From Gemmatimonadales bacterium (lineage in GTDB: Bacteria > Gemmatimonadota > Gemmatimonadetes > Gemmatimonadales > GWC2-71-9): a stretch of 34,218 bases of DNA. The stretch spans positions 1 through 34,218 of the forward strand of contig JACCRH010000346.1 in assembly GCA_013813675.1 (NCBI GenBank). Direction: 5' to 3'. The first letter of the stretch is position 1; the number at the start of each line of letters is the position of its first letter. Positions 2,267 through 27,170 of this stretch are shown one piece after another. Under the pieces are notes generated by a model. That model was given only the letters and a program-made list of their open reading frames with translations, searched no databases and was not told where the DNA came from. A program made the translations under genes and the position numbers.

Positions 2267-2279
2267 CGAGAGGAACCCC

Positions 2280-8108: not shown

Positions 8109-8212
8109 GCGAGTGCGTCGGGAGTCGTAGCCGATTGATAGGCAATACTTATGCCCCTGCGGCCGATTGCATAGCTCCTTTCGCGGTGCAGATTTGAGAT
8201 GCTGCGGAGGCG

Positions 8213-8965: not shown

Positions 8966-8997
8966 CGGGCTCCCTTGTGAGATGCTAACACCCTGAT

Positions 8998-9762: not shown

Positions 9763-9823
9763 TGCGGAACATTCGTCATCCCGCGCTCGGCGCGGGATGA
9801 TGCCACGAACTGGAGGAGATGCC

Positions 9824-10186
9824 ATGCCTGCAACCAAAGAGCGCACCTACAACGAGTCCGAGATCGCGGAAAAGCTGAAGGAGCTTTCCGGCTGGTATTT
9901 CGAGGATGGCTGGATCCGGCGGATATACAAGACCGACGGATGGCCCACCACCCTGATGCTGGTGAACGCCGTCGGGTATATGGCCGAGGCAGCCTACCAT
10001 CATCCGGACCTCACGGTGACCTGGGGCCGGATCACCGTCAAACTACAGAACCACGCCGCCGGCGGGATCACCGACAAGGACTTCGAGCTGGCTCGCAAGA
10101 TCGAGGAGGTCGCCCTCTGGCGACCCCAGGGTGGCGCCCTGGAAGGCACGCCGAACAAGTGGGTGCGGCCGGGGGATCCGAGGTAG
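9824..10186 (+). CDS. Pterin-4a-carbinolamine dehydratase (PCD/DCoH family)
   Basis: GGAGGAG at 9812-9818 lies 5 nt before ATG 9824. It carries GWPTTLMLVNAVGYMAEAAYHHPDLTVTWGRITVKL, which holds the family HHPD motif. Confidence 0.85.
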   Translation: MPATKERTYNESEIAEKLKELSGWYFEDGWIRRIYKTDGWPTTLMLVNAVGYMAEAAYHHPDLTVTWGRITVKLQNHAAGGITDKDFELARKIEEVALWRPQGGALEGTPNKWVRPGDPR

Positions 10187-10188
10187 GT

Positions 10189-10287
10189 CGGAACGGCGGA
10201 ACGGCGGTACGGCGGAACGTGAGTGCTCCGGCGCGGAACTCCGACCCGGAGCGCGACCGCCGTACCGCCGTACCGCCGTTCCGCCGG
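10189..10287. repeat. Long intergenic hairpin built from CGGAACGG/CGGTACGG octamer repeats
   Basis: 10195-10215 (GGCGGAACGGCGGTACGGCGG) is the perfect reverse complement of 10265-10285. The 49-nt loop holds an inner 7-bp hairpin, GCTCCGG 10225-10231 paired with CCGGAGC 10246-10252. The structure fills the whole gap between the TAG at 10186 and the GTG at 10288. Confidence 0.85.
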
Positions 10288-11682: not shown

Positions 11683-13163
11683 GCGGCCTTGTTCCGCTGG
11701 TGCAGGACCTTGACGGATTTCCCGACCCGGCGGAGCTGGCGGCGCGATTCCTAGATTCGCCCTACCTGCTGTTTCTCGACAGCGCCGCCGGCACCGGGTT
11801 CTCCTATCTCGCCGCCGACCCGGCCATCGTGGTGCGCAGCAAGGGCAAGGTCACCGAGGTCATGCAGGGCGACGCCTGGCGGATGGCGGAGGGGGACGCC
11901 CTCGATGTGATCCGCGGGATGTTGCAGGACGCGCGCGTCGATCCGGCGCCCGGGCTGCCCCCGTTCCAGGGAGGCGCCGCGGGATACATCGGATACGACT
12001 ACGGTGCCGTGCTCGAGCGGGTCCCGCCAACCCGCCACGACGATCTCGCGCTGCACGACGTGCTCCTGGGCTTCTACGACTGGGTGATCGCCTGGGACCA
12101 CCGCCAGGAGAGGGCGTGGATCGTCTCGCTCGGGTTGCCGGCGTGCGGCTCGGAGCGGGAGGGCCGGGCGCGGGAGCGGATGGAGGTGGTGGCGGCCCGG
12201 GCAACGAGGCGGTTGGACAGCGCGGAAACATCATCCCGAGCGACCGCGAGGGATGACGCTTCCCCACAGCGCCGCCGACCCACCGCCGCGCCGTCCTACC
12301 CGGTCACCTCCACCGATGCCGCGGTCGCGATCGGGCTCCGATCCACCTTCACTCACCGGGGGTATCTCGACGCGGTGGCCAAGGTGCGGGAGTACATCGT
12401 CGCGGGCGACATCTTCCAGGCCAACCTTTCTCAGCGCTTTCAGGCGCCGCTCGGGGAGCCGCCGTTCGAGCTGTACCGCCGGCTGCGGCAGCGCAATCCG
12501 GCGCCGTTCGCCGCCTATCTCGGATTCGGGGATGTGGTGGTGCTGAGCGTCTCCCCGGAGCGGTTCCTCCGGCTCGATCACGAACGCCAGGTGGAGACCC
12601 GCCCGATCAAGGGCACTCGCCCGAGGGGGCTGGTGCCGATGCACGACGCGGCGCTGGGACGGGCGCTGGCGGAGAGCGAGAAGGATCGCGCCGAGAACGT
12701 CATGATCGTCGATTTGTTGCGCAACGACCTGAGCCGGGTGTGCCGGCCGGGAACGGTGCGGGTTCCCGAGCTGTTTGCCCTGGAGCAGCATCCGACAGTC
12801 CACCATCTGGTCTCCACGGTGGTGGGCGAGCTGGAGCCGGCTGCCGACGCCGTGGACCTGGTGCGGGCCGCGTTCCCCGGGGGCTCGATCACCGGCGCCC
12901 CGAAGGTTCGGGCGATGGAGATCATCGCCGAGCTGGAGCCCACACGGCGAGGGGTGTACTGCGGCGCGATCGGCTACCTCAGCGCCACCGGCGCGATGGA
13001 CAGCAGCATCGTGATCCGCACCTTCGTGGCCACCGGCGGCGAACTATACTTTCAGGCCGGCGGCGGGATCGTGGCGGACTCCGATCCGGAGCTCGAGTAC
13101 CGCGAGACGATGGACAAGGCGCGAGCCCTCATCGAAGTCTTGAAGGGCGCGGCGGACTCATGA
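11679..13163 (+). CDS. pabB: Aminodeoxychorismate synthase component I
   Basis: Chorismate-binding motifs are present (FQANLSQRF, SPERFL, IKGTRPRG, FPGGSITGAPKVRAMEII, GVYCGAIGY). There are ATGA overlaps at both ends (11679-11682 and 13160-13163). Confidence 0.85.
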   Translation: MSGLVPLVQDLDGFPDPAELAARFLDSPYLLFLDSAAGTGFSYLAADPAIVVRSKGKVTEVMQGDAWRMAEGDALDVIRGMLQDARVDPAPGLPPFQGGAAGYIGYDYGAVLERVPPTRHDDLALHDVLLGFYDWVIAWDHRQERAWIVSLGLPACGSEREGRARERMEVVAARATRRLDSAETSSRATARDDASPQRRRPTAAPSYPVTSTDAAVAIGLRSTFTHRGYLDAVAKVREYIVAGDIFQANLSQRFQAPLGEPPFELYRRLRQRNPAPFAAYLGFGDVVVLSVSPERFLRLDHERQVETRPIKGTRPRGLVPMHDAALGRALAESEKDRAENVMIVDLLRNDLSRVCRPGTVRVPELFALEQHPTVHHLVSTVVGELEPAADAVDLVRAAFPGGSITGAPKVRAMEIIAELEPTRRGVYCGAIGYLSATGAMDSSIVIRTFVATGGELYFQAGGGIVADSDPELEYRETMDKARALIEVLKGAADS

Positions 13164-13834
13164 TCCTGCTGATCGACAACTACGACTCCTTCGTCTACAA
13201 TCTCGCGCGCTACGTCCGGGAGCTGGGCGAGGTTCCGGTGGTCCGGCGGAACGATGCCATAGCGGTGGAGGAGATCCTCGGCCTGGCGCCGAGCCACGTG
13301 ATCATCTCGCCGGGACCCTGCTCACCGGCGGAGGCGGGCATCTCCACCGAGCTGGTCCGCCGAGTGGGGCCCGCCATCCCGATCCTCGGCGTGTGCCTCG
13401 GCCATCAGTGTATCGGCGCCGCCTACGGCGGGGAGATCGTGCGCGCGACCCGACCGATGCATGGCAAGACCTCCCGCATCCACCACCGCGACAGCGATCT
13501 CTTCACCGGTCTGCCCAACCCGTTTCTCGCCTCCCGCTACCACTCACTGGTCATCTCTCCCGCCTCGGTACCCCAGGAGCTGGAGGTTACCGCGACCTCG
13601 GAGGACGGTGAGATCATGGCGGTAAAGCATGCCACCCATCCGGTCTACGGAGTCCAGTTCCATCCGGAGTCGGTGCTGACCGAGCACGGCTACCGGATGC
13701 TCGACCACTTCCTGCACGGGGTGCCCTCGATGCCGCGCGAGCTGCCTCCGGCCGCCGACCACGCCCTCGTCGCCCGCCCCCGCGAGAGCGCCTCTCTCGC
13801 CGCCGATCCGCCGCCGGTGGACCTGGTACGGTGA
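13160..13834 (+). CDS. pabA: Aminodeoxychorismate/anthranilate synthase glutamine amidotransferase component II
   Basis: Internal ATG 13160 of track ORF 12740..13834 gives MILLIDNYDSFVYNL. It also has GVCLGHQ (catalytic Cys) and QFHPES. Confidence 0.85.
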   Translation: MILLIDNYDSFVYNLARYVRELGEVPVVRRNDAIAVEEILGLAPSHVIISPGPCSPAEAGISTELVRRVGPAIPILGVCLGHQCIGAAYGGEIVRATRPMHGKTSRIHHRDSDLFTGLPNPFLASRYHSLVISPASVPQELEVTATSEDGEIMAVKHATHPVYGVQFHPESVLTEHGYRMLDHFLHGVPSMPRELPPAADHALVARPRESASLAADPPPVDLVR

Positions 13835-14376
13835 TCATTGAGACGCTGGTGACGTCGCTGGCACCGGACGGGACGGTCAACTTCGCGCCGATGGGCGTGG
13901 AGTGGGACGAGGACTCGCTGGTGCTCAAGCCCTTCCTGGCCACGACCACCTTCCGGAACGTGAGCGCCAGCGGCGCCGCGGTCGTCAACCTCACCGACGA
14001 CGTGATGCTCTTCGCCCAGGCCGCGATCTCGAGCCCGCGGTTTCCTTCGTTCCCCGCGGAGCTGGTGCGCGGAGTGGTGCTGGAGGCCGCCTGCTCGTGG
14101 CGGGAGCTGGAGGTGGTGCGGGTAGACGATACGCCCCCGCGGTCGCGGATCGACACCCGGGTGGTGCACCGAGGCCGGCGGCGGGAATTCCTCGGCTTCA
14201 ACCGCGCGCGCCACGCGGTGCTCGAAGCCGCGATCCTGGCCACCCGGACGCACCTGATCCCGGCGGACCAGGTCCGGGAGGAATTCGCCAAGCTTCAGGT
14301 GATCGTGGACAAGACGGCCGGCCCCCGCGAGCAACAGGCGATGGCGATGCTCACCGAGCATGTCGCTCGCCGGTAG
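13831..14376 (+). CDS. DUF447-family (split-barrel flavin-binding-like) protein, H4MPT-cluster type
   Basis: The GTG start overlaps the pabA stop (GTGA 13831-13834). MIIETLVTSLAPDGTVNFAPMGV fits the DUF447 N-terminus. Context supports the call. Confidence 0.7.
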   Translation: MIIETLVTSLAPDGTVNFAPMGVEWDEDSLVLKPFLATTTFRNVSASGAAVVNLTDDVMLFAQAAISSPRFPSFPAELVRGVVLEAACSWRELEVVRVDDTPPRSRIDTRVVHRGRRREFLGFNRARHAVLEAAILATRTHLIPADQVREEFAKLQVIVDKTAGPREQQAMAMLTEHVARR

Positions 14377-15340
14377 CGTCTTCGTTGAGACGGGCGCCCG
14401 CCTCCACTTCGGGGTGCTGGATCTGCGCGGCGCGCTGGGCCGCCGATTCGGCGGACTGGGCGCCGCGATTCCGTCGCCGTCGCTGCTCCTCGAGGTCGCT
14501 CGCTCGGAGGATGGGGTCTCCGCGGAAGGTCCGGACTCGGCGCGGGCGGCCGAGTTCGCGCGCCGCTTTCTGACCTTTCACGGCCTGGAAGGGGGAGCGC
14601 GCCTGGTGCTTCACCGGCGGATTCCGGCGCACAGCGGCCTCGGCTCGGGCACGCAACTCGGCCTGTCGGTGGCGCGGGGACTGGCCGAGGTGTACCACCT
14701 GCCGGCCGAGCCCGCCGGGCTGGCCCGGGCGGTGTCCCGAGGGCAGCGATCGGCCATCGGAACCTGGGCCTTTGCCCTCGGCGGATTTATCGTCGAGGGG
14801 GGACGCCGCCCCGGCGACGACGGCATCGCTCCGCTGATCGGCCGGTTCCCCCTGCCGGAGCGATGGCGCTACGTCGTCGCGGTGCCTCCCGGCCGTCCGG
14901 GGCTGAGCGGCGAGGCGGAGGCCGCGGCCTTCGAGCAGCTCCCACCGCCGGCGCCGGGCGAGGTGGAGCGGGTGTCTCACCTGGTGCTGATGCAACTCCT
15001 TCCCGCGCTCGTCGAGGCCGACCTCGCCGGGTTCGGCGAGGCGCTCTCGGCGGTCCAGCGGATCACCGGGGCGTGGTTCGCACCGCAGCAGGGGGGCGTG
15101 TTCGCTCCCGGCACCGGGGAGACGTTGATTCGGCGGATGGCCGGCTGGGGGGCTGCCGGCGTGGGACAGAGCTCCTGGGGGCCGGCGGTGTACGGCTTGA
15201 TCGATGGGGTGGAGGCGGGGCGCAAACTGGCCGAACGGTGCCGGGAATTCCTCGAGGGAAAAGGGCTGGTGTTCGAGGGCGGATTCGCCCGAGCCGGGGC
15301 CCGGGTGGCGAGGGGCGGACCCCCGGCCGGCAATGATTGA
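14360..15340 (+). CDS. mptG: Beta-ribofuranosylaminobenzene 5'-phosphate (RFAP) synthase, GHMP-kinase fold
   Basis: ARLHFGVLDL, the GHMP motif IPAHSGLGSGTQLGLSVA, and GQSSWGPAVYGL are present. It overlaps the previous gene by 17 nt. Confidence 0.8.
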   Translation: MSLAGSVFVETGARLHFGVLDLRGALGRRFGGLGAAIPSPSLLLEVARSEDGVSAEGPDSARAAEFARRFLTFHGLEGGARLVLHRRIPAHSGLGSGTQLGLSVARGLAEVYHLPAEPAGLARAVSRGQRSAIGTWAFALGGFIVEGGRRPGDDGIAPLIGRFPLPERWRYVVAVPPGRPGLSGEAEAAAFEQLPPPAPGEVERVSHLVLMQLLPALVEADLAGFGEALSAVQRITGAWFAPQQGGVFAPGTGETLIRRMAGWGAAGVGQSSWGPAVYGLIDGVEAGRKLAERCREFLEGKGLVFEGGFARAGARVARGGPPAGND

Positions 15341-15365
15341 CAGTTCATTTTTCAGGCTGTATACT
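15337..15365 (+). promoter_or_regulatory. Near-consensus sigma70-type promoter
   Basis: TTGACA (15337-15342), a 17-nt AT-richer spacer, then TATACT (15360-15365). The -35 hexamer overlaps the mptG stop codon. No convincing CDS follows for about 660 nt. Confidence 0.5.
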
Positions 15366-15989
15366 GGCCCACCTAAGCCTCCCGTACTCGGCGACTTGGC
15401 CGGTTCCGAAAGCGGGTTTGGCGCGAGCCGATCGTCTCGTCGCCACTCGGCATTACCCAGGAGCCGGATGCAGTTCCAGCGGCATCACGAGAGGCAGCCG
15501 CCTCCCCCGACTGCAGTCCATTTCTGACACATCGTGGTTCAGCGGCGTCGCTGAGGAATATGATGGGCGTATTCCCGTTGGCGGACACCTTGAGTTTCTT
15601 CTCGAATCCTTCGCCGTCCCGCGGGGGCCCGGCTCACGCGCCGGCCGGCGGACGGACCGACAAGGTCTGGTGGTGCTGCCATCAACCGACGAACCCGCAG
15701 CGTACCGCCGCCGCAGCGCACCCCCCAACCCACTACATTGCGTATCCACCGCATCCACGCGGTACCCGGGCCCCGGCCGGCATCTGGCGTGCTGATGGCC
15801 GGCCGGTACATCCGGCGAGCCTCGACCGCTCGTATATCAGATCGGACCGCGGGATGGGCGCCGAGCGCGGACCGCTGTCCGCCAGGTCCTGCCTGCCGGG
15901 ACTCCCCCGACCCAACCGGCACGCATGCGGCACCCGAGCCCGGTCGCCGCTTCCGCAGTCCTCGGGTTCGCAGCAAGTGGACTCCGATT

Positions 15990-16008
15990 GCAGTAGAAGC
16001 AGTAGAAT
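15990..16008 (+). promoter_or_regulatory. Perfect tandem 9-mer (GCAGTAGAA x2) with a TAGAAT -10-like hexamer just upstream of xoxF
   Basis: GCAGTAGAA occurs at 15990-15998 and again at 15999-16007. TAGAAT lies at 16003-16008, 24 nt before the xoxF ATG. No good -35 hexamer sits at 17-nt spacing. Confidence 0.3.
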
Positions 16009-16031
16009 CACCCTTCATCCTGAGGTCAGTT

Positions 16032-17873
16032 ATGAACCGTTTCACGCAGAAGGTGCTGTCTGGCGGAATCGCGGCGGGCCTGTCGTTGGCCGTCGTGGCC
16101 TCCGCCAACGCCCAGGCGGCGCGCTCGGGGGCATGGACCCTGAATGCGCCCGAGGGCGAATGGCACATGACGGGCCGTGATTATGGCTTGCAGCGCTTCA
16201 GTCCGCTCAAGCAGATCACGACCTCCAACGTGGCCGAGCTGCGGCCGGTCTGGTCGTTCTCGACCGGAACGCTGCGCGGGCATGAGGGCAACGCCCTCGT
16301 CGTCGGCAACGTGAAGTACATCCACACCAGTTTCCCCAACATCGTGTACGCGCTCGACCTCGCCAAGCCTGGCGCGCCCCAGATCTGGAAGTACGTGCCG
16401 AACCAGTCGCCCGACGCGATTCCCATCGCGTGCTGCGACCTGGTGAACCGGGGCCTGGCGTATCACCCGAGCGGGAAGCTCTTCATCCAGCTTCTCCAGG
16501 GCGAGCTGCTCGCGCTCGACGCGAAGAGCGGCAAGGAGCTGTGGAAGGCGAAGCACCCGGATAAGTCCAATGCCGGCGTCGAGGCGACCGGGTATAAGCA
16601 GGGCGCCACGATGACCAACGCCCCGATCGTGATCAAGGACATCGTCATCGCCGGCATCTCCGGCGGTGAATTCGGCGTCCGCGGCCGGGTCTCGGCGTTC
16701 AACACCAACGACGGCAAGCACATGTGGACGGCGTACTCGACCGGACCGGACGCCGAAGTCATGATCCAGGGTGACGCCAACGCCAACTATCCTTCCCACA
16801 AGGGCAAGGACCTCGGCGTGTCGACCTGGCAAGGCGATGAGTGGAAGCGGGGCGGCGGCACCACCTGGGGCTGGTACTCCTACGACCCCGAGCTCAACCT
16901 CTTCTACTACAGCACCGGCAACCCGGGAAGCTGGAATCCCGATCAGCGCCCTGGCGACAACAAGTGGTCGATGACCATCTTCGCCCGCAACCCGCAGACC
17001 GGGATGGCGAAGTGGGCCTATCAGATGACGCCGCACGACGAGTGGGACTATGACGGCGTCAACGAGAACGTTCTCTTCGAGAGCGGCGGCAAGAAGCTGC
17101 TGGCGCACTTCGACCGTAACGGCTTCGGCTATACGCTCGATCGCACCAACGGCAAGCTGGTCGTGGCGCAGCCCTACGGTCCGGTCAACTGGGCCAAGCG
17201 GGTGGATCTGAAGACCGGCGTGCCGGAGAAGGATCCCCGGTACGGCACCACCGCGAAGAAGAACACCGAGGGCATCTGCCCCGCGGCGATCGGCTTCAAG
17301 GATCAGCAGCCCGCGGCGTACTCGCCGATGACCGGCTACTTCTACGTGCCGGCCAACCACATCTGCATGGACTATGAAGGTGTGGAAGTGAAGTACACCG
17401 CTGGTCAGCCCTATGTCGGCGCCATCGTGCGCATGTTCCCGGGCCCGGGTGGTCACCGCGGCCGGTTCATCGCGTGGGATCCGATGAAGGGCAAGGTCGT
17501 CTGGGAAGCCAAGGAAGGTCTGGCGGCCTACGGCGGCGCGCTCACCACCGCCGGCGGGGTGGTCTTCTACGGCACCATGGAGGGCTGGCTCAAGGCCCTC
17601 GACCAGAAGACCGGCAAAACCCTCTGGCAGTTCAAGACCCCCTCGGGGATCATCGGCAACCCGATGACCTACAACGGGCCGGATGGCCAGCAGTACGTGT
17701 CCGTCCTTTCCGGCATCGGTGGCTGGGCCGGCATCGGCGTGGCCGCGGGTATCGGCGCTGAGGATCCGACCGCCGGTCTCGGCGCGCTCGGCGCCTTCGG
17801 CGACGCGGGGAACTTCAGCAACCAGGGCGGTGTGCTCACCGTCTTCGCGCTGAAGAACCCGACCATGAAGTAA
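16032..17873 (+). CDS. xoxF: PQQ-dependent methanol/alcohol dehydrogenase, XoxF (lanthanide-dependent) type
   Basis: Internal ATG 16032 of track ORF 15738..17873 has GAGG 6 nt upstream. The signal peptide is MNRFTQKVLSGGIAAGLSLAVVASANAQA. A vicinal Cys-Cys is present (PIACCDLVNRG). W-D-Y-D-G-V-N contains the extra Asp (codon 17052-17054) that marks lanthanide-binding XoxF, where MxaF has Ala. Confidence 0.92.
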   Translation: MNRFTQKVLSGGIAAGLSLAVVASANAQAARSGAWTLNAPEGEWHMTGRDYGLQRFSPLKQITTSNVAELRPVWSFSTGTLRGHEGNALVVGNVKYIHTSFPNIVYALDLAKPGAPQIWKYVPNQSPDAIPIACCDLVNRGLAYHPSGKLFIQLLQGELLALDAKSGKELWKAKHPDKSNAGVEATGYKQGATMTNAPIVIKDIVIAGISGGEFGVRGRVSAFNTNDGKHMWTAYSTGPDAEVMIQGDANANYPSHKGKDLGVSTWQGDEWKRGGGTTWGWYSYDPELNLFYYSTGNPGSWNPDQRPGDNKWSMTIFARNPQTGMAKWAYQMTPHDEWDYDGVNENVLFESGGKKLLAHFDRNGFGYTLDRTNGKLVVAQPYGPVNWAKRVDLKTGVPEKDPRYGTTAKKNTEGICPAAIGFKDQQPAAYSPMTGYFYVPANHICMDYEGVEVKYTAGQPYVGAIVRMFPGPGGHRGRFIAWDPMKGKVVWEAKEGLAAYGGALTTAGGVVFYGTMEGWLKALDQKTGKTLWQFKTPSGIIGNPMTYNGPDGQQYVSVLSGIGGWAGIGVAAGIGAEDPTAGLGALGAFGDAGNFSNQGGVLTVFALKNPTMK

Positions 17874-18073: not shown

Positions 18074-18955
18074 ATGCCTCGCTCAACCCCCGGCCGCGCG
18101 GCGCTCGCGATCCTCGCCGCCGCAGGTCTCATGGCCAATCGGGCAGCCGCCCAGCAACTTCGCACCAACCTGCCGACGCCAGGCATCCTCCGGGTCTGTG
18201 CCGACCCCGACAACATGCCGCTCTCCAACGAGAAGGGCGAAGGGTTCGAGCAGAAGATCGCGGAGCTGATCGGCAGGGAATGGAATACCAAAGTGGAATA
18301 CGCCTGGTGGCCGGTGCGGCGGGGCTTCTTCAGCCGCGCGCTCAACGGCCGGTATTGCGACGTGGCGATCGAGGCTCCCTCGGGACTCGACATGGCCGGC
18401 GTGACGAAACCCTATTTCCGCTCCGGCTATTTCTTCCTCACCCGCAAGGACAGCGGCCTCGACATCAAGTCGCTCTCCGATCCCCGGCTCAAGAAGCTCA
18501 AGATCGGCGTCAACCTGCTCCACTCCGACGCCGAGAACACCCCGCCCGCCATGGCGCTGAGCCGCCATGGCGTGATCGGCAACCTCACCGGCTACAGCAC
18601 CTTCTACACCACCGAAGACCGGCCCGAGGACATCGTCGAAGGGGTGGCAAAAAAGGAAGTGGACGTCGCCATCGTGTGGGGGCCGGTGGCCGGATACTTC
18701 GCCAAGAAGTCGACCGTTCCCCTGGTGCTCACCCCGCTCGCCGAGCGGGACTCGTTGAGCGACTTCCCCTTCCGATTCAACATCGCGATGGGTGTCCGCC
18801 GGCGCGACCGGGAGCTCCGCGACAGCCTCGACGTCCTGCTGCAGCGCAAGCAGCCGGAGATCCAGGCCATCCTGAAGGAGTACCAGGTCCCGGTGTTTCC
18901 GGTCGTCGAAGAAAGCGATGACGACGACGCGCCTCCGCCCAAGCCCACTGGCTGA
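18074..18955 (+). CDS. xoxJ: XoxJ/MxaJ-like periplasmic solute-binding protein (quinoprotein-dehydrogenase-associated)
   Basis: Internal ATG 18074 of track ORF 17891..18955 gives the signal peptide MPRSTPGRAALAILAAAGLMANRAAA. LRVCADPDNMPLSN, YFRSGYFF and VDVAIVWGPVAGYFA are typical of the MxaJ/XoxJ/PedG family. Confidence 0.8.
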   Translation: MPRSTPGRAALAILAAAGLMANRAAAQQLRTNLPTPGILRVCADPDNMPLSNEKGEGFEQKIAELIGREWNTKVEYAWWPVRRGFFSRALNGRYCDVAIEAPSGLDMAGVTKPYFRSGYFFLTRKDSGLDIKSLSDPRLKKLKIGVNLLHSDAENTPPAMALSRHGVIGNLTGYSTFYTTEDRPEDIVEGVAKKEVDVAIVWGPVAGYFAKKSTVPLVLTPLAERDSLSDFPFRFNIAMGVRRRDRELRDSLDVLLQRKQPEIQAILKEYQVPVFPVVEESDDDDAPPPKPTG

Positions 18956-19018: not shown

Positions 19019-19480
19019 GTGAAAGGACTGGCTCACAGCATGCGCACCTCCCTCTCCGCCACGCTCCGCCGGCTGGCCGCCGGTGGTGGCATTCTTCTGG
19101 CCGCCGTGACGGTTGGCTCCCGGCTGGAGGCCCAGGAGATTCGTGACCAGTACCACCAGGCGCCGCGGGACACCGTGTCACAGGCCGTGTACGACGGCTG
19201 GAAGCAATTCAACCTGAACTGCGCGCGATGCCACGGCGAGGATGTCCTGGGCACCACGATCGCCCCCCACCTCATCGTCTCGTTGAAGCCCCAGGGGCCG
19301 ATCAACACCAAGGAGGCGTTCCTCCAGGTGGTCTGCGCCGGCCGGCCGGCGAAGGGGATGCCGGCCTGGTGCTCCCTCGGAATGGATCCCGCCATCATCG
19401 AGAAGATCTACGCCTACGTGAAGGCGCGAAGCGACGGGAAGATGTCGCCCGGCAGGCCCGCCCGAAAAGTGCAGGGCTGA
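19019..19480 (+). CDS. Periplasmic mono-haem c-type cytochrome, probable electron acceptor of XoxF (XoxG / PedF-like role)
   Basis: It has a signal-like N-terminus, one CxxCH site (CARCH) and a distal GMPAW Met. The start could be GTG 19019 or ATG 19040. Confidence 0.8.
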   Translation: MKGLAHSMRTSLSATLRRLAAGGGILLAAVTVGSRLEAQEIRDQYHQAPRDTVSQAVYDGWKQFNLNCARCHGEDVLGTTIAPHLIVSLKPQGPINTKEAFLQVVCAGRPAKGMPAWCSLGMDPAIIEKIYAYVKARSDGKMSPGRPARKVQG

Positions 19481-19530
19481 GCAGGCTGGAAAAGCCGTTC
19501 AACCGCGTGCAAGGTGAAAGTGAGGTCCCC

Positions 19531-20346
19531 GTGGGAAGTGGAATCGTCGCGAGTCTCTGGATGGCCGGACTCCTCCGCTCCATGGCCCCTGTCGTGGCCG
19601 ACACTCCCATGGTTCGCCTCGATGCCGCCCAGGTGGCTCGCCGGCTGGCCGCCGCGCCGGAAGCCACCGCGCCCGATCTGTCCGGCGTAGACCTGAGTGG
19701 GCTCGACCTCACGGATGTCGACTTCAAACGGGCCGATCTCACCGGCGCTCGCCTCGTCGGAACCCGACTGGCCGGCGCCAATCTCTTCAGTTGCGATCTC
19801 ACCGACGCGGTGGGAACCGATGCGGTGCTCACCAAGGCCAATATGGACGGCACGGTGTTGCGCCGGGCCGACTTTCACCGAGCCGATCTGGCCGGCGCCA
19901 GCCTCTTCGCCACGATCCTGGAAAAGACCAACCTGAGTGGGGCCAATCTGGCCGGCACCCGGATCATCGGCTATCTCCGGAGCGCCAACCTCTCGGGCGC
20001 CAGCCTCAGAAACTCCAACGCCGGCGCCGACCCGGGCAATCAGTCCATGGGGGTCATGCGGGCGACGTTCGTCGGCGCGGACCTGCGCGGCGCCGACCTG
20101 AGCGGCGCCAACCTCTACAAAGCCGATTTCTCCCACGCCGATCTCACGGGCGCCAAGCTGCCGCGAGCCAACCTCGAGAATGCCGAACTGGTACAGACCG
20201 ACTTCAGCCGCGCCGACCTGACGGGCGCCCGCCTGGCCAAGTCCAACATCGAGGGCGCGAGCTTTCGCGGCGCCAGAGGTTTGGCACAGACTCAGGGCCT
20301 GGATCAGGCCCGTAACCGGGACAAGGCGATCTTCGATGCCCAATGA
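19531..20346 (+). CDS. Pentapeptide-repeat protein
   Basis: This is the downstream part of track ORF 19228..20346. Its upstream part overlaps the cytochrome gene out of frame. There is a long run of A(D/N)LxG-type pentapeptides (DLSGVDLSGLDLTDVDFKRADLTGARLVGTRLAGANLFSCDLTD...). The start is uncertain: GTG 19531 preceded by GTGAGG, GTG 19507, or ATG 19561. Confidence 0.75.
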   Translation: MGSGIVASLWMAGLLRSMAPVVADTPMVRLDAAQVARRLAAAPEATAPDLSGVDLSGLDLTDVDFKRADLTGARLVGTRLAGANLFSCDLTDAVGTDAVLTKANMDGTVLRRADFHRADLAGASLFATILEKTNLSGANLAGTRIIGYLRSANLSGASLRNSNAGADPGNQSMGVMRATFVGADLRGADLSGANLYKADFSHADLTGAKLPRANLENAELVQTDFSRADLTGARLAKSNIEGASFRGARGLAQTQGLDQARNRDKAIFDAQ

Positions 20347-21433
20347 CCGCGCTCGAGCCGTTTTCCGAATCGCGCTTCCTGCATGTTTGACCCTCTCCGG
20401 CACCGCATGTAGCGGGGACGGAGCGCGATCCGGCGGCGCCGCCGATTCCGCCTCCACCGCCTCCGACACTCCCGGGGCCGAGCTCGCGTATATAACCAAT
20501 GAGGGGTCGGGCGAGCTCACCATTCTGGACACGTCGACCGACAGCGTCGTCGGCACCATCTCCGTGGGGACCCGCCCCCGCGGCATCCGGCTCAGCGAGG
20601 ACGGCCGGACCGTCTACGTGGCGCTCAGCGGGTCGCCTCGCTGCCCGCCCACGATGCCCGACGAGGAGTGTGAGAAGCTCAAGGCCGACAAGACCAAGGA
20701 CGGCATCGGCGTGATCGACGTGGCGAGCCGGAAGGTGACCAAGGTGCTCCCGGGCGGCTCCGATCCCGAGGCGTTCGACATCAGCAAGGACGGAACCCGG
20801 CTCTTCGTCTCCAACGAGGACGCGGACTCCGCCACGATCGTGGACATCGCGAGCGGCAAGATCCTGAAGACGGTCTCCGTAGGCCGGGAGCCGGAGGGCG
20901 TGGAGCTGCATCCGAGCGGCGAGACCGTCTGGGTCACCGGCGAGACCGATCACGACGTCACCGTGCTCGACACCGACAGCGGCAAGGTGATTACCAGGAT
21001 CAGCGTCGGCAATCGCCCCCGCGATCTGGCGTTCAGCAGCGACGGCGGCCGGGCCTACGTCAGCTCCGAGACCGGCGGCACCGTGTCGGTGGTCGATGCC
21101 AAGACCCGCAAGGTTGTGCGGACCTTGACGATGCCGGAAGGCTCCAAGCCGATGGGAGTGGAGCTGTCGCCCGATCAAAAGCGCCTGTACGTGGCCAACG
21201 GCCGCGGCGGGTCGGTGTCGGTGGTGGACCTGGCCACCGACTCTATCGTCGCCACGGTCGAAGTCGGTGTCCGTCCCTGGGGGATCGGGCTCACCACCGA
21301 TGGTCGTAAGCTCTACAGCGCCAATGGCCCCTCCAACGACGTGACGGTGGTGGACACCGAAACCATGAAGGTGCTGAAGAAGATTCCCGCCGGCGAGCTG
21401 CCCTGGGGAGTCGCGGTCGGCCGGGCCCCGTGA
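20336..21433 (+). CDS. YVTN-family beta-propeller protein (PQQ-dependent-catabolism-associated type), probable lipoprotein
   Basis: The N-terminus is ...LPACLTLSGTACSG. Repeated propeller blades follow (YITNEGSGELTILD, YVALSG, LFVSNEDADSATIVD, VWVTGETDHDVTVLD, AYVSSETGGTVSVVD, LYVANGRGGSVSVVD, LYSANGPSNDVTVVD). It overlaps the previous gene by 11 nt. Confidence 0.85.
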   Translation: MPNDRARAVFRIALPACLTLSGTACSGDGARSGGAADSASTASDTPGAELAYITNEGSGELTILDTSTDSVVGTISVGTRPRGIRLSEDGRTVYVALSGSPRCPPTMPDEECEKLKADKTKDGIGVIDVASRKVTKVLPGGSDPEAFDISKDGTRLFVSNEDADSATIVDIASGKILKTVSVGREPEGVELHPSGETVWVTGETDHDVTVLDTDSGKVITRISVGNRPRDLAFSSDGGRAYVSSETGGTVSVVDAKTRKVVRTLTMPEGSKPMGVELSPDQKRLYVANGRGGSVSVVDLATDSIVATVEVGVRPWGIGLTTDGRKLYSANGPSNDVTVVDTETMKVLKKIPAGELPWGVAVGRAP

Positions 21434-21912
21434 TCCGGTGGCCCGTCGTTGCACTGGCGGTTCTGGCGCTGGGCGCGACCGCCCGGGGGCCCCAAGCCTT
21501 TCGATTCGAGCCTGACGCGACCGCCGAGCTCCGGCGGCTCTGGACCGGCAGCCGCGATGCCAAGACGGAGCGGGTGGCCTGCCTGGCGGGAGAGACCCGC
21601 CGGGACACCGTGATGATCATCCGCATCCTTCCCTTGACCGGCTGGGCGGACTCACTCGGGGTCTCCGCCGCGCCATCGCTGGAAACCTGCGCCCCGCCCC
21701 GCTGGCAGGGTACGGTGCATACCCACGTGGCCCTCTACGACGGCGCGCGGCCCTACTCCCGGTTTTCGGGGGCGGACCGCGGCGTCAATGGACTCTGGTG
21801 GCGCCGGTGGCACGCCGAGGGGCTGTTCTGCGTGCTGTACTCGGCGACCGGTGCCTATTGCGAGATCGACGGCCCCCGCGGCGTCGCCATCTTCCCCCGG
21901 TCCGCCTACTGA
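21430..21912 (+). CDS. Secreted Cys-rich protein with a JAB/MPN-like E...HxH...SxxD pattern (paralog 1)
   Basis: The GTG start overlaps the beta-propeller stop (GTGA 21430-21433). The signal peptide is MIRWPVVALAVLALGATARG. It carries ERVACLAGE and GTVHTHVALYDGARPYSRFSGADR, plus four Cys conserved with paralog 2. Confidence 0.7.
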   Translation: MIRWPVVALAVLALGATARGPQAFRFEPDATAELRRLWTGSRDAKTERVACLAGETRRDTVMIIRILPLTGWADSLGVSAAPSLETCAPPRWQGTVHTHVALYDGARPYSRFSGADRGVNGLWWRRWHAEGLFCVLYSATGAYCEIDGPRGVAIFPRSAY

Positions 21913-21920
21913 GGTCCGGC

Positions 21921-22424
21921 GTGCGGCTGGCGCTGATGTGCTGGTTGGGGGTCATGGCGGCGTACCCGGCTGCCGCGGCACAGGAACCGTCCCCGCGTGC
22001 CGGCTTCCGCTTCAGCCCGGAGGCCGGGGCGACGCTCCGCTCACTGTGGCAGGAGAGTGTGGAGGCGCAGCAGGAGCGCGTGGCCTGCCTCGCCGCCGAT
22101 ATCCGCGGCGACACGGTTTTCGTGAGTCGGATCCTCCGGATCGAGCCTGACGCCGCGGATTCCATGGGCATCTCGGCCACCGCCTCGATCGAGCGCTGCG
22201 GCCCGCCGAAGTGGGACGGCACGGTGCACACCCATGTGGCCCTCTACACCGAAGACGGCCCTTCGCGCCGTTTCTCGGGCCAGGACCGCACCGTCATGCG
22301 GCTGTGGTACGGCCGCTGGCGCTCGGATGGCGTGTTCTGCATCGTTTACAGCGAGCGAAGCGCACACTGCGAGGCCGACGGCGTCGTGGGCGGTCTGCGC
22401 TCCCGACCCCGTGTCGTACGCTGA
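21921..22424 (+). CDS. Secreted Cys-rich protein with a JAB/MPN-like E...HxH...SxxD pattern (paralog 2)
   Basis: This is in-frame GTG 21921 of track ORF 21798..22424, 8 nt after the paralog 1 stop, with GAGG upstream. The signal peptide is VRLALMCWLGVMAAYPAAAAQ. It carries ERVACLAAD and GTVHTHVALYTEDGPSRRFSGQDR. It is colinear with paralog 1 at roughly half identical residues. Confidence 0.7.
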   Translation: MRLALMCWLGVMAAYPAAAAQEPSPRAGFRFSPEAGATLRSLWQESVEAQQERVACLAADIRGDTVFVSRILRIEPDAADSMGISATASIERCGPPKWDGTVHTHVALYTEDGPSRRFSGQDRTVMRLWYGRWRSDGVFCIVYSERSAHCEADGVVGGLRSRPRVVR

Positions 22425-22446: not shown

Positions 22447-24450
22447 ATGCCGCTTCGATATCTGGCACTCGCCGCCACGCTTGCCGCGCCGCTCGATCCG
22501 CCCGACACCGACAACCAGCCGTTCTGGACCGGTCATCCCGATGGCGCCGGATTCGAGCGAGCAGTGGAGCAGCGGCTGTTGCGCGCCCGGCGGATGCTCG
22601 ACCGTCTGGTGGCCGTGACGAGCCAGCGCACCATCTCCAACACCCTGGCGCCCTACGACCATATGACTCGGGAGCTGGATCGCGCGGCGAGCGAGGCCGG
22701 GCTGATCCGGAATGTCCACCCGGACTCGGCGCTGCGGCAGGCGGCGGAGCGAAGCGACCAGCGGGTGGCGGCCTTCGCGACCGAGCTGTCGCTCGACCGA
22801 CGCGTCTTCGAAGCGATCGAGTCGGTGGAGCTGCAGGACGCCGACCCGGTCACCCGGCACTATGTCGGCCGACTCCTGCGGGACTTCCGGCTCGCCGGGG
22901 TGGACCGGGATTCCGCCACCCGTGCGCGGATCAAGGTGCTGCGGGACGAGCTGGTCACCATCGGCCAGGAATTCGACCGGAACGTCCGGGACGACGTCCG
23001 AAGGATCGAGCTCGCGTCCGCCGCCGAGCTCGACGGACTGCCGGCCGACTTCATCGCGTCCCACCCGGCCGGGCCCAATGGGCGCATTGGTCTCACCACC
23101 GAATACCCCGATGTGATCCCGGTGCTCACCTACGCCCGAAGCGACGACCTGCGCCGACGGCTCCGCGCCGAGTTCGACAACCGGGCATACCCGGCGAACA
23201 TGGCGGTGCTCGACCGGATGATCGCCCGACGCGACGAGCTGGCCCGTCTGCTCGGCTTTACGTCGTGGGCGGACTACGCCGTCGCCGACAAGATGGTGGG
23301 TTCCGCCGCCAAGGCGTCGGCCTTCATCGACCGGGTCGTCGCCGCCTCGAAGGACGCGGCGGAGCGCGAGTATCTGATGCTGCTCCGCCGGAAGCAGCTG
23401 GACCAGCCGGGCGCGGCGGTGATCAACCGGTGGGAGACCGCCTACCTGCGCGAGCTGGTGCGCCGCTCGGAGTACGACTTCGATTCCCAGAAGGTGCGCC
23501 CCTATTTCCCCTACGAGCGGGTCAAGCAAGGCGTCCTGGATCTCTCCGCCCGGCTCTTCAACGTCAGCTTCCGACGAATGAAGGACCCGCCGGTGTGGCA
23601 CCCTTCGGTCGAGGGCTGGGAGATGCTGGAGGGCGGCGAGCTGGTCGGTCGGTTCTATCTCGACATGCACCCGCGCCCCGGGAAGTACGGCCACGCGGCC
23701 CACTTTCGGGTCCGCACCGGCACTACCGATGGGGCGCTCCCGGAATCCGCGCTGATCTGCAATTTCCCCGGCGGCACCCCCGGCGAGCCCGGCCTGATGG
23801 ATCACGGCGACGTCGAGACCTTTCTCCACGAGTTCGGCCACCTGATGCACGCCCTGCTGGCGCGCCAGCGCTGGAGCGGGGTGAGCGGCGTCAGAACCGA
23901 ATGGGATTTCGTGGAGGCGCCGTCGCAGATGCTGGAGGAGTGGGGCTGGGACCCGGCGGTGCTGGCGGGCTTCGCCCGGCATCACCAGACCGGCGAGCCG
24001 ATTCCCGCCCAGCTGGTTCACCAGCTCAAGCGGGCCACCGAGTTCGGCCGGGCGCTCGATATGCGCACCCAGATGACCTACGCCCGGATCTCGCTGTCCC
24101 TCTACGACCGCCCGCCGGCGCAGGTCGACAGCGACTCGATCGTCTCGGCGGTGACACGCGCCTACACGCCGGTGCCGCCGATGCCGGGCACGCACATGCA
24201 GACCTCGTTCACCCACCTCAACGGCTACTCGGCGTTCTACTACACCTACATGTGGTCGCTGGTGATCGCGAAGGATCTGTTCAGCCGGTTCGACCAGTCG
24301 GATCTGCTGGCGGCGGATCCGGCCCGCCGCTATCGACGCCTGATTCTGGAGCGGGGTGGATCGGCTCCCGCGGCACGGCTGGTTGAGGATTTCCTCGGCC
24401 GGCCGTTCAGCTTTAACGCCTGGCGGAAGTGGCTGGAGACCGGGACCTGA
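22447..24450 (+). CDS. M3-family zinc metallopeptidase (thimet oligopeptidase / Dcp-like)
   Basis: Internal ATG 22447 of track ORF 22234..24450 gives MPLRYLALAATLAAP. It contains the HEFGHLMH zinc motif and the downstream EAPSQMLE. Confidence 0.9.
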   Translation: MPLRYLALAATLAAPLDPPDTDNQPFWTGHPDGAGFERAVEQRLLRARRMLDRLVAVTSQRTISNTLAPYDHMTRELDRAASEAGLIRNVHPDSALRQAAERSDQRVAAFATELSLDRRVFEAIESVELQDADPVTRHYVGRLLRDFRLAGVDRDSATRARIKVLRDELVTIGQEFDRNVRDDVRRIELASAAELDGLPADFIASHPAGPNGRIGLTTEYPDVIPVLTYARSDDLRRRLRAEFDNRAYPANMAVLDRMIARRDELARLLGFTSWADYAVADKMVGSAAKASAFIDRVVAASKDAAEREYLMLLRRKQLDQPGAAVINRWETAYLRELVRRSEYDFDSQKVRPYFPYERVKQGVLDLSARLFNVSFRRMKDPPVWHPSVEGWEMLEGGELVGRFYLDMHPRPGKYGHAAHFRVRTGTTDGALPESALICNFPGGTPGEPGLMDHGDVETFLHEFGHLMHALLARQRWSGVSGVRTEWDFVEAPSQMLEEWGWDPAVLAGFARHHQTGEPIPAQLVHQLKRATEFGRALDMRTQMTYARISLSLYDRPPAQVDSDSIVSAVTRAYTPVPPMPGTHMQTSFTHLNGYSAFYYTYMWSLVIAKDLFSRFDQSDLLAADPARRYRRLILERGGSAPAARLVEDFLGRPFSFNAWRKWLETGT

Positions 24451-24462
24451 ACGAGCCGGGGC

Positions 24463-25005
24463 TCAGCTGAGCGGGCGGCGGGCGAGCACCGAGTCGGGGT
24501 TGCGGGCCGCGATCCTGCCGTCCAGTCCCCACACCCGCCCCGCTCGAGCCATGAAGAATGCCAGCATGAGGGAGAAGAGCACCAGGTGAAACCCCTGTTG
24601 TCCGGGGGACATCCACTGGGTGGCGAGCCCATAGTTCGTCACCAGTACCAGCCCGAGCAGCGACGCCACCCCGGTCAGCAGCCCCAGCGTCAGCCCGAGA
24701 CCCACCGCCGTCTCTCCCCAGGCGGTGAGCTGGGCGAACAGTTCCGGATGGGTGAGCACCGTGCCCTCGAGGAATTGCTTGTACTCGGCGATCGGGTTCT
24801 GCGAGGCTTGCTTCGCCACGATGGCCGGCATCACGCTGATCCACCGCTCCGAGACCGCCGGCAGCGGCAGAAATCCGCCGGCCAAGACGATGCTCATCTT
24901 CGTGACCAACGACTTCACGAAGTACAGTCCCACCACGATGCGCAGGAAGGCGATCCACTTGTCGGGGTGGGTCATCGTGATGGCGGAACGGGTGGCGTGG
25001 GTCAT
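24463..25005 (-). CDS. DoxX-family integral membrane protein
   Basis: Internal ATG 25005 (or 24975) of track ORF 24463..25125. It has four hydrophobic helices (WIAFLRIVVGLYFV, TAVGLGLTLGLLTGVASLLGLVLV, HLVLFSLMLAFF). The track ORF's upstream part runs through repeat copy B. Confidence 0.75.
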   Translation of the reverse strand: MTHATRSAITMTHPDKWIAFLRIVVGLYFVKSLVTKMSIVLAGGFLPLPAVSERWISVMPAIVAKQASQNPIAEYKQFLEGTVLTHPELFAQLTAWGETAVGLGLTLGLLTGVASLLGLVLVTNYGLATQWMSPGQQGFHLVLFSLMLAFFMARAGRVWGLDGRIAARNPDSVLARRPLS

Positions 25006-25047
25006 GATCTCGAGCTCCGAATGACGTGAGGGCCAGTGCGACAGATT

Positions 25048-25113
25048 GTCACCCTGAGCGCAGCGAAGGGGGCATGACCCAGCGTATGCTCCCTTCACTT
25101 CGTTCAGGGTGAC
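25048..25113. repeat. REP/MITE-like palindromic element, copy B (diverged)
   Basis: GTCACCCTGAGCGCAGCGAAGGGG, a loop, then CTCCCTTCACTTCGTTCAGGGTGAC. It lies between the prolyl oligopeptidase stop and the DoxX start. Confidence 0.8.
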
Positions 25114-25121
25114 AACCACCG

Positions 25122-27170
25122 TCAACCAGCCTCAAACTCCACCCCCACCTCCGAAAACACAAACGCCCAGGTATCGGTCAGCTCCTCGAGCACTTTGTTG
25201 AGCGGTTTGCCCGCGCCGTGGCCGGCGCGGGCCTCCAGCCGAAGCAGAATCGGTCGAGGGGACGAAGTCGCGGCCTGGAGCCGGGCGGTCATCTTGCGGG
25301 CGTGCATAGGGTCCACCCGCGTATCGCTCTCCGCGGTGGCGAGGAGGACGGCGGGGTAGGCCACGCCGTCACCCACGTGGTGATATGGGCTGTAGGCCCT
25401 GAGCCAAGGGAACTGCGCCGGATCCTCGGCCGACCCGTACTCCGGGATCCACAGCCGGGCGATCAGGAAACGGTGATACCGCAGCATGTCGAGCAGCGGC
25501 ACCTGGATCACGACGGCCCGGAACAGGTCGGGCCGCTGGGTGAGCACGGCACCCATCAGCAGGCCGCCGTTCGACCCGCCGGCGGCGGCCAGGCGCTCCG
25601 GTACGGTGTATCCCCGCGCGATCAGCCACTCGGCGGCCGCGACGAAGTCGTCGAAGCTGTTCTGCTTGCGGCCAAGCATGCCCTGCTGGTGCCAGTCCTC
25701 GCCGTACTCTCCCCCACCCCGGATGTTGGGAATGGCGACGACTCCGCCTCGCTCCAGCCACAGCAGCAGCGAGCGCGAGAAGGCCGGCGTCATGCTGATG
25801 TTGAAGCCGCCGTACCCTGTGAGGTAGACCGGATTGCCGCCGTCCCGCACCAGGCCCGCGCGGTGCACCAGGAACATCGAGACCTCGGTGCCGTCCCGGG
25901 AGCGGACCGCCACCTGGCTCACCTCGAACCGCGAGGGATCCACGTCGGCTTCCACCCGGCGCCAGAGCTCCTCGGCGCCGGTCTCCATGTCGATCCGGTA
26001 GACGCCGGGCGGGACGGTATACGAGGAGAAGCCATAGAAGAGCTCGCGACCGTCCCACTCCGCTCCGGCGCCGAACAGGCTGCCCAGCGTCGGCAGCGGG
26101 ATCTCGCGTACACCGCGGCCGTCGTGGTCAGTGAGCCTCAGCCTCGACGACGCCCGCTCGAGATAGCTGAGCGCGAGGTGGGCGGCGGTGACCCGCACGC
26201 CTTCCAGCACAGCGTCGTGGCGCGGTCCGACGATCTCCCGCCAGGCCTCGCGGTCCGGGCGCTCGGGATCCACCGCGTAGAGCCGGTAGGTCGGCGCGTC
26301 GAGGTTGGTGCGCATGAACAGCCGGCCGTGCATGACCTCGCCCTCGAACGAGGCAGGCAGGTCTTTGGCGACTGCCACCGGTGGCGCTCCGCTCCGAAGG
26401 TCCTGCAGGTAGAGGTCGGTCTGGTCGAAGGTCCGGGCGACTCCGATCACCAGCCAGCGCCCGTCGGGCGAGATCCCCACACTGGGCCAGTGCTCCTTCT
26501 CGGCGGGCTTGAGGACCAGCGGGTCGTCCGCCGGATCCGAGCCGAGGCGGTGGAAACGGATGGCCCGGTGGTAGTGCTCCTCGCCCGCCGGCGCTTGGCC
26601 GGCCGCGGGATAGCGGGTGTAGTAGAATCCCGTCCCGTCCGGAAGCCAGGCGAGATCGGCGGCACGGGTGTGCGGGATCCGGTCTCCGAGGAGTGTGCCG
26701 GAATCCACCTCCAGCACCTGAAGCACGCTCTCCTCGCTGCCGTTCTCCGACAGGCCGTACGCCAGCAGGCGACCGTCGTCGCTCGGGTAATACCAGTCCA
26801 GCGCAACCGTGCCACCGTCGTCGAGGGCGTTGGGATCAATCACTGCCCGGTCTTCGCCGTGCACGCCCTCCCGCAAATAGAGCACCGGCTGGTTCTGCCG
26901 TCCGTCGCGCCGCTGGTAGAAGTAGCGGCCCCGCGCCGGCGTGGGAACGCTGATCGCGCCGATCGCGAGCAGCTGGTCGAGCCGGCGATGGAGGTCGGCC
27001 CGGCCCGGCACGGCGTTCAGGTACGACCGGGTGAGCGCGTTCTGGGCCGCGGTCCACTCCCTCGTGGCCGGACTCTCGCCGTCCTCCAGCCAACGGTAGG
27101 GGTCGGGGATGGTCTCGCCGTGCAGCGTCTCGGCGGTGTCGGAGGTGGGCGTGGGGGGGTACTTGGGCAT
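25122..27170 (-). CDS. Prolyl oligopeptidase (S9A serine peptidase)
   Basis: Internal ATG 27170 of track ORF 25122..28265 gives MPKYPPTPTSDT...DPYRWLED, the typical POP N-terminus. The catalytic Ser is in GGSNGGLLMG. The C-terminal Asp/His region includes D.RV and GHG. Confidence 0.9.
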   Translation of the reverse strand: MPKYPPTPTSDTAETLHGETIPDPYRWLEDGESPATREWTAAQNALTRSYLNAVPGRADLHRRLDQLLAIGAISVPTPARGRYFYQRRDGRQNQPVLYLREGVHGEDRAVIDPNALDDGGTVALDWYYPSDDGRLLAYGLSENGSEESVLQVLEVDSGTLLGDRIPHTRAADLAWLPDGTGFYYTRYPAAGQAPAGEEHYHRAIRFHRLGSDPADDPLVLKPAEKEHWPSVGISPDGRWLVIGVARTFDQTDLYLQDLRSGAPPVAVAKDLPASFEGEVMHGRLFMRTNLDAPTYRLYAVDPERPDREAWREIVGPRHDAVLEGVRVTAAHLALSYLERASSRLRLTDHDGRGVREIPLPTLGSLFGAGAEWDGRELFYGFSSYTVPPGVYRIDMETGAEELWRRVEADVDPSRFEVSQVAVRSRDGTEVSMFLVHRAGLVRDGGNPVYLTGYGGFNISMTPAFSRSLLLWLERGGVVAIPNIRGGGEYGEDWHQQGMLGRKQNSFDDFVAAAEWLIARGYTVPERLAAAGGSNGGLLMGAVLTQRPDLFRAVVIQVPLLDMLRYHRFLIARLWIPEYGSAEDPAQFPWLRAYSPYHHVGDGVAYPAVLLATAESDTRVDPMHARKMTARLQAATSSPRPILLRLEARAGHGAGKPLNKVLEELTDTWAFVFSEVGVEFEAG

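Follow-up and report, generated by a model that had tools for sequence, protein, structure and literature searches.

Tandem exported proteins with a predicted JAB/MPN fold are a conserved part of the XoxF methanol dehydrogenase island of Gemmatimonadota

Here we describe two adjacent genes, which we call JAB-A (21430..21912, plus strand, 160 amino acids) and JAB-B (21921..22424, plus strand, 167 amino acids), located in the cluster of a XoxF-type, pyrroloquinoline quinone (PQQ)-dependent methanol dehydrogenase of a Gemmatimonadales bacterium from soil. The window, that is the whole stretch of DNA analysed, comprises 34,218 nucleotides (nt) of contig JACCRH010000346.1 (assembly GCA_013813675.1). 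Both gene products are named "hypothetical protein" in the database records of this metagenome-assembled genome. According to structure modelling they have the fold of MPN/JAB proteins, and they carry the residues of a JAMM/MPN+ zinc site behind a signal peptide. On balance, and on the strength of sequence and model, we lean towards reading the two proteins as periplasmic, Sec-exported MPN+/JAMM zinc amidohydrolases (peptidases or isopeptidases) that serve as accessories of the XoxF island, possibly as a heterodimer.

The fold was predicted for mature JAB-A with AlphaFold, run template-free on a 70-sequence alignment including divergent members of the family. This gave a model with a predicted local distance difference test score (pLDDT) of 86.8 and a predicted template modelling score of 0.83, and an earlier model built from 22 close sequences (pLDDT 50) was discarded. 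Searching the PDB with Foldseek returned 102 matches at E<=1e-3, and all 50 listed are MPN/JAB proteins, among them CSN6, Rpn8, Rpn11, CSN5, BRCC36, eIF3h, the archaeal Rpn11 homolog and BubCD, with a probability of 1.00 and query-normalised TM-scores of 0.50-0.61. In the viral structure library BFVD, the named top matches are phage JAB/MPN proteins. Neither profiles nor structure assigned an unrelated known fold, and at the level of the model these matches show that A and B have the MPN/JAB fold. Within the model, E47 is found just ahead of strand 2, H97 and H99 at the end of a strand, and S113 and D116 at the N-terminus of a helix, so that the modelled motif residues occupy the JAMM positions in the secondary structure.

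The motif reads E47...H97-T-H99-x13-S113-G-A-D116 in JAB-A (codons at 21568-21570, 21718-21720, 21724-21726, 21766-21768 and 21775-21777 for E47, H97, H99, S113 and D116, respectively) and E52...H103-T-H105-x13-S119-G-Q-D122 in JAB-B (codons at 22074-22076, 22227-22229, 22233-22235, 22275-22277 and 22284-22286 for E52, H103, H105, S119 and D122), with exactly 13 residues between HxH and S in both proteins. The original prediction, made from the letters of the DNA, had likened this E...HxH...SxxD arrangement to the JAMM/MPN+ zinc site while pointing to a spacer of about 13 residues instead of 7. We found that the likeness extends to the whole family. In an alignment of 55 full-length diverse representatives, with identity to JAB-A down to 24%, E47, C51, H97 and H99 are invariant (55/55) and D116, S113 and G94 nearly so (54/55, 53/55 and 53/55, respectively), while the columns conserved in at least 90% of the sequences comprise S41, A50, C87, P90, G94, T98, S113, D116, W123, C134 and C144. 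The residues of the putative site are among the most conserved of the family, and E, C, H, H and D are all invariant across the 20 most divergent members. The central triplet is H-T-H in 53/55 representatives and H-S-H in 2/55, and there is a conserved Gly three residues ahead of HxH, as in JAMM/MPN+ proteins. The HxH-to-S stretch itself varies from 7 to 30 residues across the family, with a mode of 12-13 and the canonical 7 in P0324 only, so that the 13 residues seen in A and B belong to a variable loop rather than marking a different site.

JAB-A and JAB-B are 55% identical across 129 residues (BLASTP, E 7e-49), in agreement with their description in the original prediction as tandem, colinear paralogs with about half of their residues identical, and every sequence block listed there as shared was present in our comparison of the two. 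The two lineages have 58 positions that are conserved and identical in A and B and 11 that are fixed differently, including the x of S-G-x-D (A115 in JAB-A, Q121 in JAB-B). Both genes start with GTG, and their G+C content at third codon positions (0.87 for JAB-A and 0.86 for JAB-B) is in line with that of the neighbouring genes. They are separated by a gap of 8 nt, with a GAGG 5 nt before the start of JAB-B. Because the orthologs are 167 amino acids long, we placed this start at 21921 rather than at the beginning of the longer open reading frame (ORF) from 21798. The predicted translational coupling of the first gene to the gene for a beta-propeller protein was also confirmed: the TGA stop of the latter (21431-21433) overlaps the GTG of JAB-A (21430-21432) in a GTGA at 21430-21433. 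As for the pair ending the xoxF operon, co-location and coupling bear out its place in the cluster. However, the gene of an M3-family peptidase follows on the same strand 22 nt downstream, and JAB-B is therefore not strictly the last gene in this window.

The clear signal peptides and four conserved Cys noted earlier for each protein were likewise found. The N-terminus of JAB-A reads M-I-R-W-PVVALAVLALGATA, followed by RG after the signal peptide (residues 1-18, 21430-21483), and that of JAB-B reads M-R-LALMCWLGVMAAYPAAAA, followed by QE after a signal peptide of about residues 1-20. Both consist of a basic N-region, 12-14 hydrophobic residues and an AxA cleavage-type end. An N-terminal hydrophobic segment is a trait of 49/55 family representatives, the remainder being mostly truncated gene calls, and two representatives, P0340 and P0344, look like lipoproteins. 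No twin-arginine motif was found in the JAB N-termini, which makes export by the Sec system likely. The conserved Cys are C51, C87, C134 and C144 in JAB-A and those at positions 56, 93, 140 and 150 in JAB-B, which has an additional, non-conserved Cys7 within its signal peptide. Two of the 55 representatives lack C134 or have it replaced, and the same number do so for C144; in alignment A3, the members without both are P0357 and P0365, and such joint absence is as expected for a disulfide pair. Two disulfides, C51-C87 and C134-C144, probably stabilise the fold. Taken with the periplasmic neighbours XoxF, XoxJ and XoxG, the signal peptides and Cys pairs suggest a periplasmic location for the JAB proteins.

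To place the family in its genomic context, we relied on two surveys. An exhaustive profile search of 1.84 billion representative proteins gave 129 clusters at 50% identity; the database homologs number 210 for JAB-A and 1069 for JAB-B. A genome scan with one genome per species, for which the best 80 loci were retained and their neighbours mapped by tblastn with denominators depending on the available flank, placed 78 of these species-level loci in Gemmatimonadota. The scan used the close alignment A1 and is thus biased towards Gemmatimonadales. The other two loci, L036 and L080, lie on short contigs that keep the same synteny but were assigned to Chloroflexota and Acidimicrobiaceae. They show the Gemmatimonadales order of pentapeptide, beta-propeller and JAB genes, joined in L036 by DoxD and another JAB copy, and their JAB proteins are 60-64% identical to JAB-A; they probably reflect mis-binning rather than a wider distribution. 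A tblastn search of plasmids with JAB-B gave no match.

Across these loci the gene order is strongly conserved. Two tandem JAB copies are present in 69/80 loci, and the beta-propeller gene lies directly upstream of JAB in 73/77. Where the flank is sufficient, a PQQ dehydrogenase is found within 8 kb in 48/49 loci, an association with xoxF/PQQ loci that is also seen in rearranged orders, and a gene of the DoxD/DoxX family adjoins the JAB genes in 60/60, making DoxD the most constant neighbour. The M3 peptidase gene is directly downstream in only 15/66 loci and absent in 51/66, where JAB-B is then the last gene; we accordingly rejected this peptidase as a functional partner and regard it as a variable insert. 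Additional loci were obtained from metagenome homologs with 39-52% identity. These include two rearranged orders, xoxF-xoxJ-cyt c-pentapeptide-DoxD(-)-JAB(+)-tetrahydromethanopterin (H4MPT) genes(-) and DoxD(-)-JAB(+)...pabB(-)...xoxF cluster. The link to DoxD is kept in every rearranged order (types II and III), with DoxD(-) and JAB(+) as divergent neighbours in L005, L089 and L115-L120, and the link to the xox genes is kept wherever the contig is long enough. The tie to the island, and above all to DoxD, thus survives rearrangement, and a functional link between DoxD and JAB is possible on the basis of gene order. In a rough neighbour-joining tree, the single-copy forms fall in with the A lineage, and those from rearranged loci group with the B lineage.

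Several observations weigh against reading the pair as JAMM hydrolases of the XoxF island, and the first group concerns the assignment itself. None of the sequence and profile methods used (Pfam, NCBIfam, PHROGs, PDB, hhalign) ties the family to JAB above noise. A Pfam scan of A and B gave no match even at E<=10, the libraries searched contain no NCBIfam or Pfam model for the two proteins, and a PHROGs scan of the family was equally negative. Scanning each member against Pfam gave Prok-JAB at E 0.005 in 1/55, with none of the families listed reaching its threshold, and DUF4329 in 1/55 (P0352) at E 0.065 and 13.6 bits, compared with a cut-off of 28.6. A match of JAB-B only to LpxC in the family-library scan (20 bits, cut-off 423) was treated as noise, and PDB sequence searches by phmmer and hmmsearch, with two family profiles and two divergent members, returned noise only (a PH domain, a designed knot protein, eIF2-alpha and antibody chains). 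With hhalign, comparison to four canonical JAMM domains reached a non-significant E of 0.2; in the sole alignment E/E, HTH/HSH and SGAD/SGVD are in register. The four canonical sequences were validated by their PDB matches, and the alignment is taken to show register only. Furthermore, the canonical HxH-x7-S-x2-D spacing is absent from both A and B, which have 13 residues instead of 7, and the canonical placement of the JAMM residues comes solely from secondary-structure positions in the model. Seen through the model, the family belongs to the JAB superfamily as a new branch of deep divergence, which fold and motif reveal and which lies outside the curated families.

The second group of observations concerns the context. 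In type II loci an opposite-strand DoxD gene lies between JAB and the xox genes, which means that JAB is not always part of a xox operon. Some distant paralogs (39-50% identity; L118, L107/L108, L123, L099 and L098) are found outside the XoxF context, next to a GAF histidine kinase and a KaiC-like ATPase, an FtsX/MacB permease and a FabI-like reductase, DinB and an asparagine synthase, an amidohydrolase, or a CarboxypepD_reg-domain protein. Rather than occurring wherever XoxF systems occur across phyla, the JAB pair is almost confined to Gemmatimonadota, and with nearly all of the synteny coming from one phylum, part of it may be inherited gene order and not functional coupling.

These observations are at the heart of the alternative that survives best, in which A and B are JAMM hydrolases of general function in the periplasm, or work together with DoxD/DoxX, and owe their proximity to xoxF to the inherited gene order of Gemmatimonadota and not to a role in methanol oxidation. 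The constancy of DoxD, which remains adjacent as a divergent pair even where JAB is out of line with xoxF, fits this explanation well, as do the unrelated genes next to the distant paralogs and the restriction of the synteny to one phylum throughout. Against it, three different gene orders all have the JAB gene inside the same XoxF and H4MPT island, the commonest of them couples its translation to that of the beta-propeller gene of the cluster, and a PQQ dehydrogenase lies nearby in almost every locus. We consider this explanation a real but minor possibility, and continue to favour JAMM amidohydrolases that are accessories of the XoxF island.

By analogy with known JAMM enzymes, such accessories would each hold one Zn2+ in the periplasm by H97, H99 and D116 (JAB-A numbering), E47 would activate a water molecule and S113 would stabilise the intermediate. 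The bond hydrolysed would be an amide, of peptide or isopeptide type, in a substrate that resides in the periplasm and is tied to the XoxF/DoxD system; candidates would be parts of the XoxF system itself, a partner of DoxD or a small-molecule amide. MPN proteins typically act as dimers or paired subunits; this pairing, together with the residues fixed separately in each paralog, suggests that A and B may form a heterodimer. They could also divide a substrate range between them, and we speculate that a homodimer would take their place in single-copy lineages. In its most specific form, the proposal would make the pair a dedicated periplasmic JAMM amidase of lanthanide-dependent methylotrophy, which either cleaves XoxF, XoxJ, XoxG or the beta-propeller protein for maturation or activation, or cleaves the amide of a chelator to release lanthanide; we regard this version as unlikely.

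The same residues could instead serve binding without catalysis, the two proteins then being periplasmic metallochaperones or buffers for lanthanides or zinc that use the His/Asp/Glu site, in the sense of the metal handling offered as an example in the original prediction, an explanation we find doubtful even though the conserved residues are metal ligands and the neighbour is a lanthanide enzyme. Known lanthanide sites, such as those of XoxF and lanmodulin, consist of carboxylate and carbonyl oxygens and contain no His-x-His pair; the His-x-His site of A and B is unlike them, which makes lanthanide handling unlikely and suggests a zinc hydrolase, and lanthanide binding at the His site was accordingly judged improbable on chemical grounds. 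Furthermore, the MPN proteins that have lost catalysis, Rpn8 and CSN6, have lost residues of the catalytic set. In the JAB family the general-base Glu and the Ser are kept and not just the three ligands, the pattern expected of an enzyme, and this favours catalysis over plain metal binding.

Compared with the known JAMM/MPN+ proteins (Rpn11, CSN5, AMSH, BRCC36, the Caldiarchaeum Rpn11 homolog, the Mec+/CysO-processing enzymes and BubCD), A and B share, as far as the model goes, the alpha/beta MPN fold and the E, HxH and S..D elements at the same secondary-structure positions. They differ in having a Sec signal peptide, where the known proteins are cytoplasmic, and four conserved Cys that probably form two disulfides. 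HTHV replaces HSHP, and the loop from HxH to S has 13 residues (7-30 in the family) instead of 7. The context is periplasmic methanol oxidation, with no ubiquitin-like partner or E1/E2-like gene nearby, and there is no above-threshold match to Pfam JAB (PF01398), Prok-JAB (PF14464) or RadC.

A parallel outside the cytoplasm is Tox-JAB-2 (DUF4329, PF14220), for which Zhang et al. (2012, PMC3482391) give the motif E, H[ST]H, S, D and describe secreted phage versions. According to the same paper, prokaryotic JAB domains were intracellular as far as was known in 2012, with toxin and phage versions as the exception. Like A and B, Tox-JAB-2 is a JAB-superfamily domain found outside the cytoplasm and divergent from the ubiquitin-directed JABs, and its H[ST]H fits their H-T-H. 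However, A and B are stand-alone proteins of about 160 amino acids in a conserved metabolic cluster, and are not the C-terminal modules of RHS or other polymorphic toxins; an immunity gene is absent from their surroundings, the best PF14220 score of the family stays below the gathering cut-off, and P0365 alone lies in a phage region. This most divergent homolog (L006, 10001-10528), which is without the C-terminal Cys pair, is encoded on a contig of 12 kb where genes for a phage tail tube and a tape-measure protein precede it. Comparing the family by hhalign with ORF24 of Xanthomonas phage OP1, taken as the Tox-JAB-2-like representative (DUF4329 at E 6e-5), aligned 11 columns at E 0.33, that is, no profile similarity. 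That the pair might be secreted toxins or effectors of this kind, or RadC-like nucleases, unrelated to metabolism, is therefore very improbable: the shared motif, the weak DUF4329 match of one member and the phage-borne homolog speak for it, but there is no RHS or toxin-delivery module, immunity-type neighbour or polymorphism, the chromosomal synteny is stable in 80 species, the phage OP1 comparison finds nothing, a tandem pair of one fold is not a toxin-immunity pair, and a nuclease would have no obvious substrate in the periplasm of its producer.

A and B resemble the other accessories of XoxF clusters (xoxJ, xoxG, the TIGR03866 beta-propeller and the pentapeptide-repeat gene) in that all have predicted periplasmic products encoded in line with xoxF at a conserved position, although many phyla have xoxJ, xoxG and the propeller, and A and B are known almost only from Gemmatimonadota. 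None of the conserved hypothetical proteins named in a 2024 survey of the XoxF3 clusters of Gemmatimonadetes and Acidobacteria is JAB-like (PMC10875860), and our search of the literature for a link between xoxF and JAB found nothing relevant.

The window as a whole is a methylotrophy island. Starting with the enzyme itself, the XoxF-type PQQ methanol/ethanol dehydrogenase (16032..17873, plus strand, 613 amino acids, with a signal peptide) matches TIGR03075 with 658 bits and carries the lanthanide-type DYD motif ("HDEWDYDGVNE"). It is followed on the same strand by genes for a XoxJ/MoxJ-like periplasmic binding protein (18074..18955; TIGR03871, 275 bits, above the cut-off), the start of which was set at M62 of a long ORF to fit orthologs of 293 amino acids, and for a XoxG-like c-type cytochrome (19019..19480) with a Pfam Cytochrome_CBB3 match, a weak match to TIGR03874 and a CxxCH. 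The pentapeptide-repeat gene (19530..20346, plus strand; Pfam Pentapeptide, 1e-45), its approximate start placed by comparison with orthologs of 271 amino acids, has a conserved position and is a constant component of the xoxF cluster across these genomes, with an extra DUF3280 domain in L089. The YVTN beta-propeller gene (20336..21433, plus strand) scores 263 bits against TIGR03866, just below the cut-off of 287, and has TIGR02276 repeats and matches to Pfam beta-propeller families. Beyond the JAB pair lie the M3-family zinc oligopeptidase gene (22447..24450, plus strand; Pfam Peptidase_M3, 1e-106), whose product has a short hydrophobic N-terminus, the gene of the DoxD/DoxX-family membrane protein (24463..25125, minus strand; Pfam DoxD/DoxX), and then a prolyl oligopeptidase gene and further genes.

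No terminator-like sites were found within the xoxF-to-JAB cluster. About 665 nt upstream of the xoxF ATG, in an AT-rich patch, there is a promoter-like TTGACA-17-TATACT (15337..15365, plus strand) that matches 11/12 consensus positions and belongs to a block conserved in about 38 related loci; this consensus match makes it a candidate promoter for a transcription unit running from xoxF to JAB. The xoxF leader (15337-16031) contains nucleotide-conserved blocks at 15340-15420 and 15480-15600, found in about 30-38 related loci, as well as a weakly conserved small ORF (15563-15736), and gave no match in an Rfam scan. Upstream of the xoxF cluster, positions 498-15340 hold genes of the tetrahydromethanopterin-biosynthesis type: an ATP-grasp ligase, PTPS, HisA-like, Hydantoinase_A-family and amino-acid kinase-family genes, together with DUF6513/pterin-binding, pabB-like, GATase, DUF447 and GHMP kinase genes. 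In the middle of this block, on the minus strand, is a gene for a HAMP-GAF-GGDEF-EAL signalling protein (5115-8108).

In a grassland-soil proteome, no protein was more abundant than the XoxF methanol dehydrogenase of Gemmatimonadetes (PMC5103831), and with an enzyme of such abundance an unrecognised conserved partner matters. The JAB pair is a conserved and so far unannotated part of the XoxF island, with a generality limited by its restriction to one phylum, and as judged from sequence and model it would give the JAB/MPN superfamily periplasmic members within a metabolic system. Were the pair to be a dedicated amidase of methylotrophy, it would be the first of the JAB/MPN enzymes to act in periplasmic metabolism and would reveal an unrecognised step in bringing lanthanide enzymes to function. 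More generally, if A and B are active amidases, they would offer a concrete and testable candidate for an accessory step still missing from the scheme of lanthanide-dependent methanol oxidation, or for what the ever-adjacent DoxD protein does.

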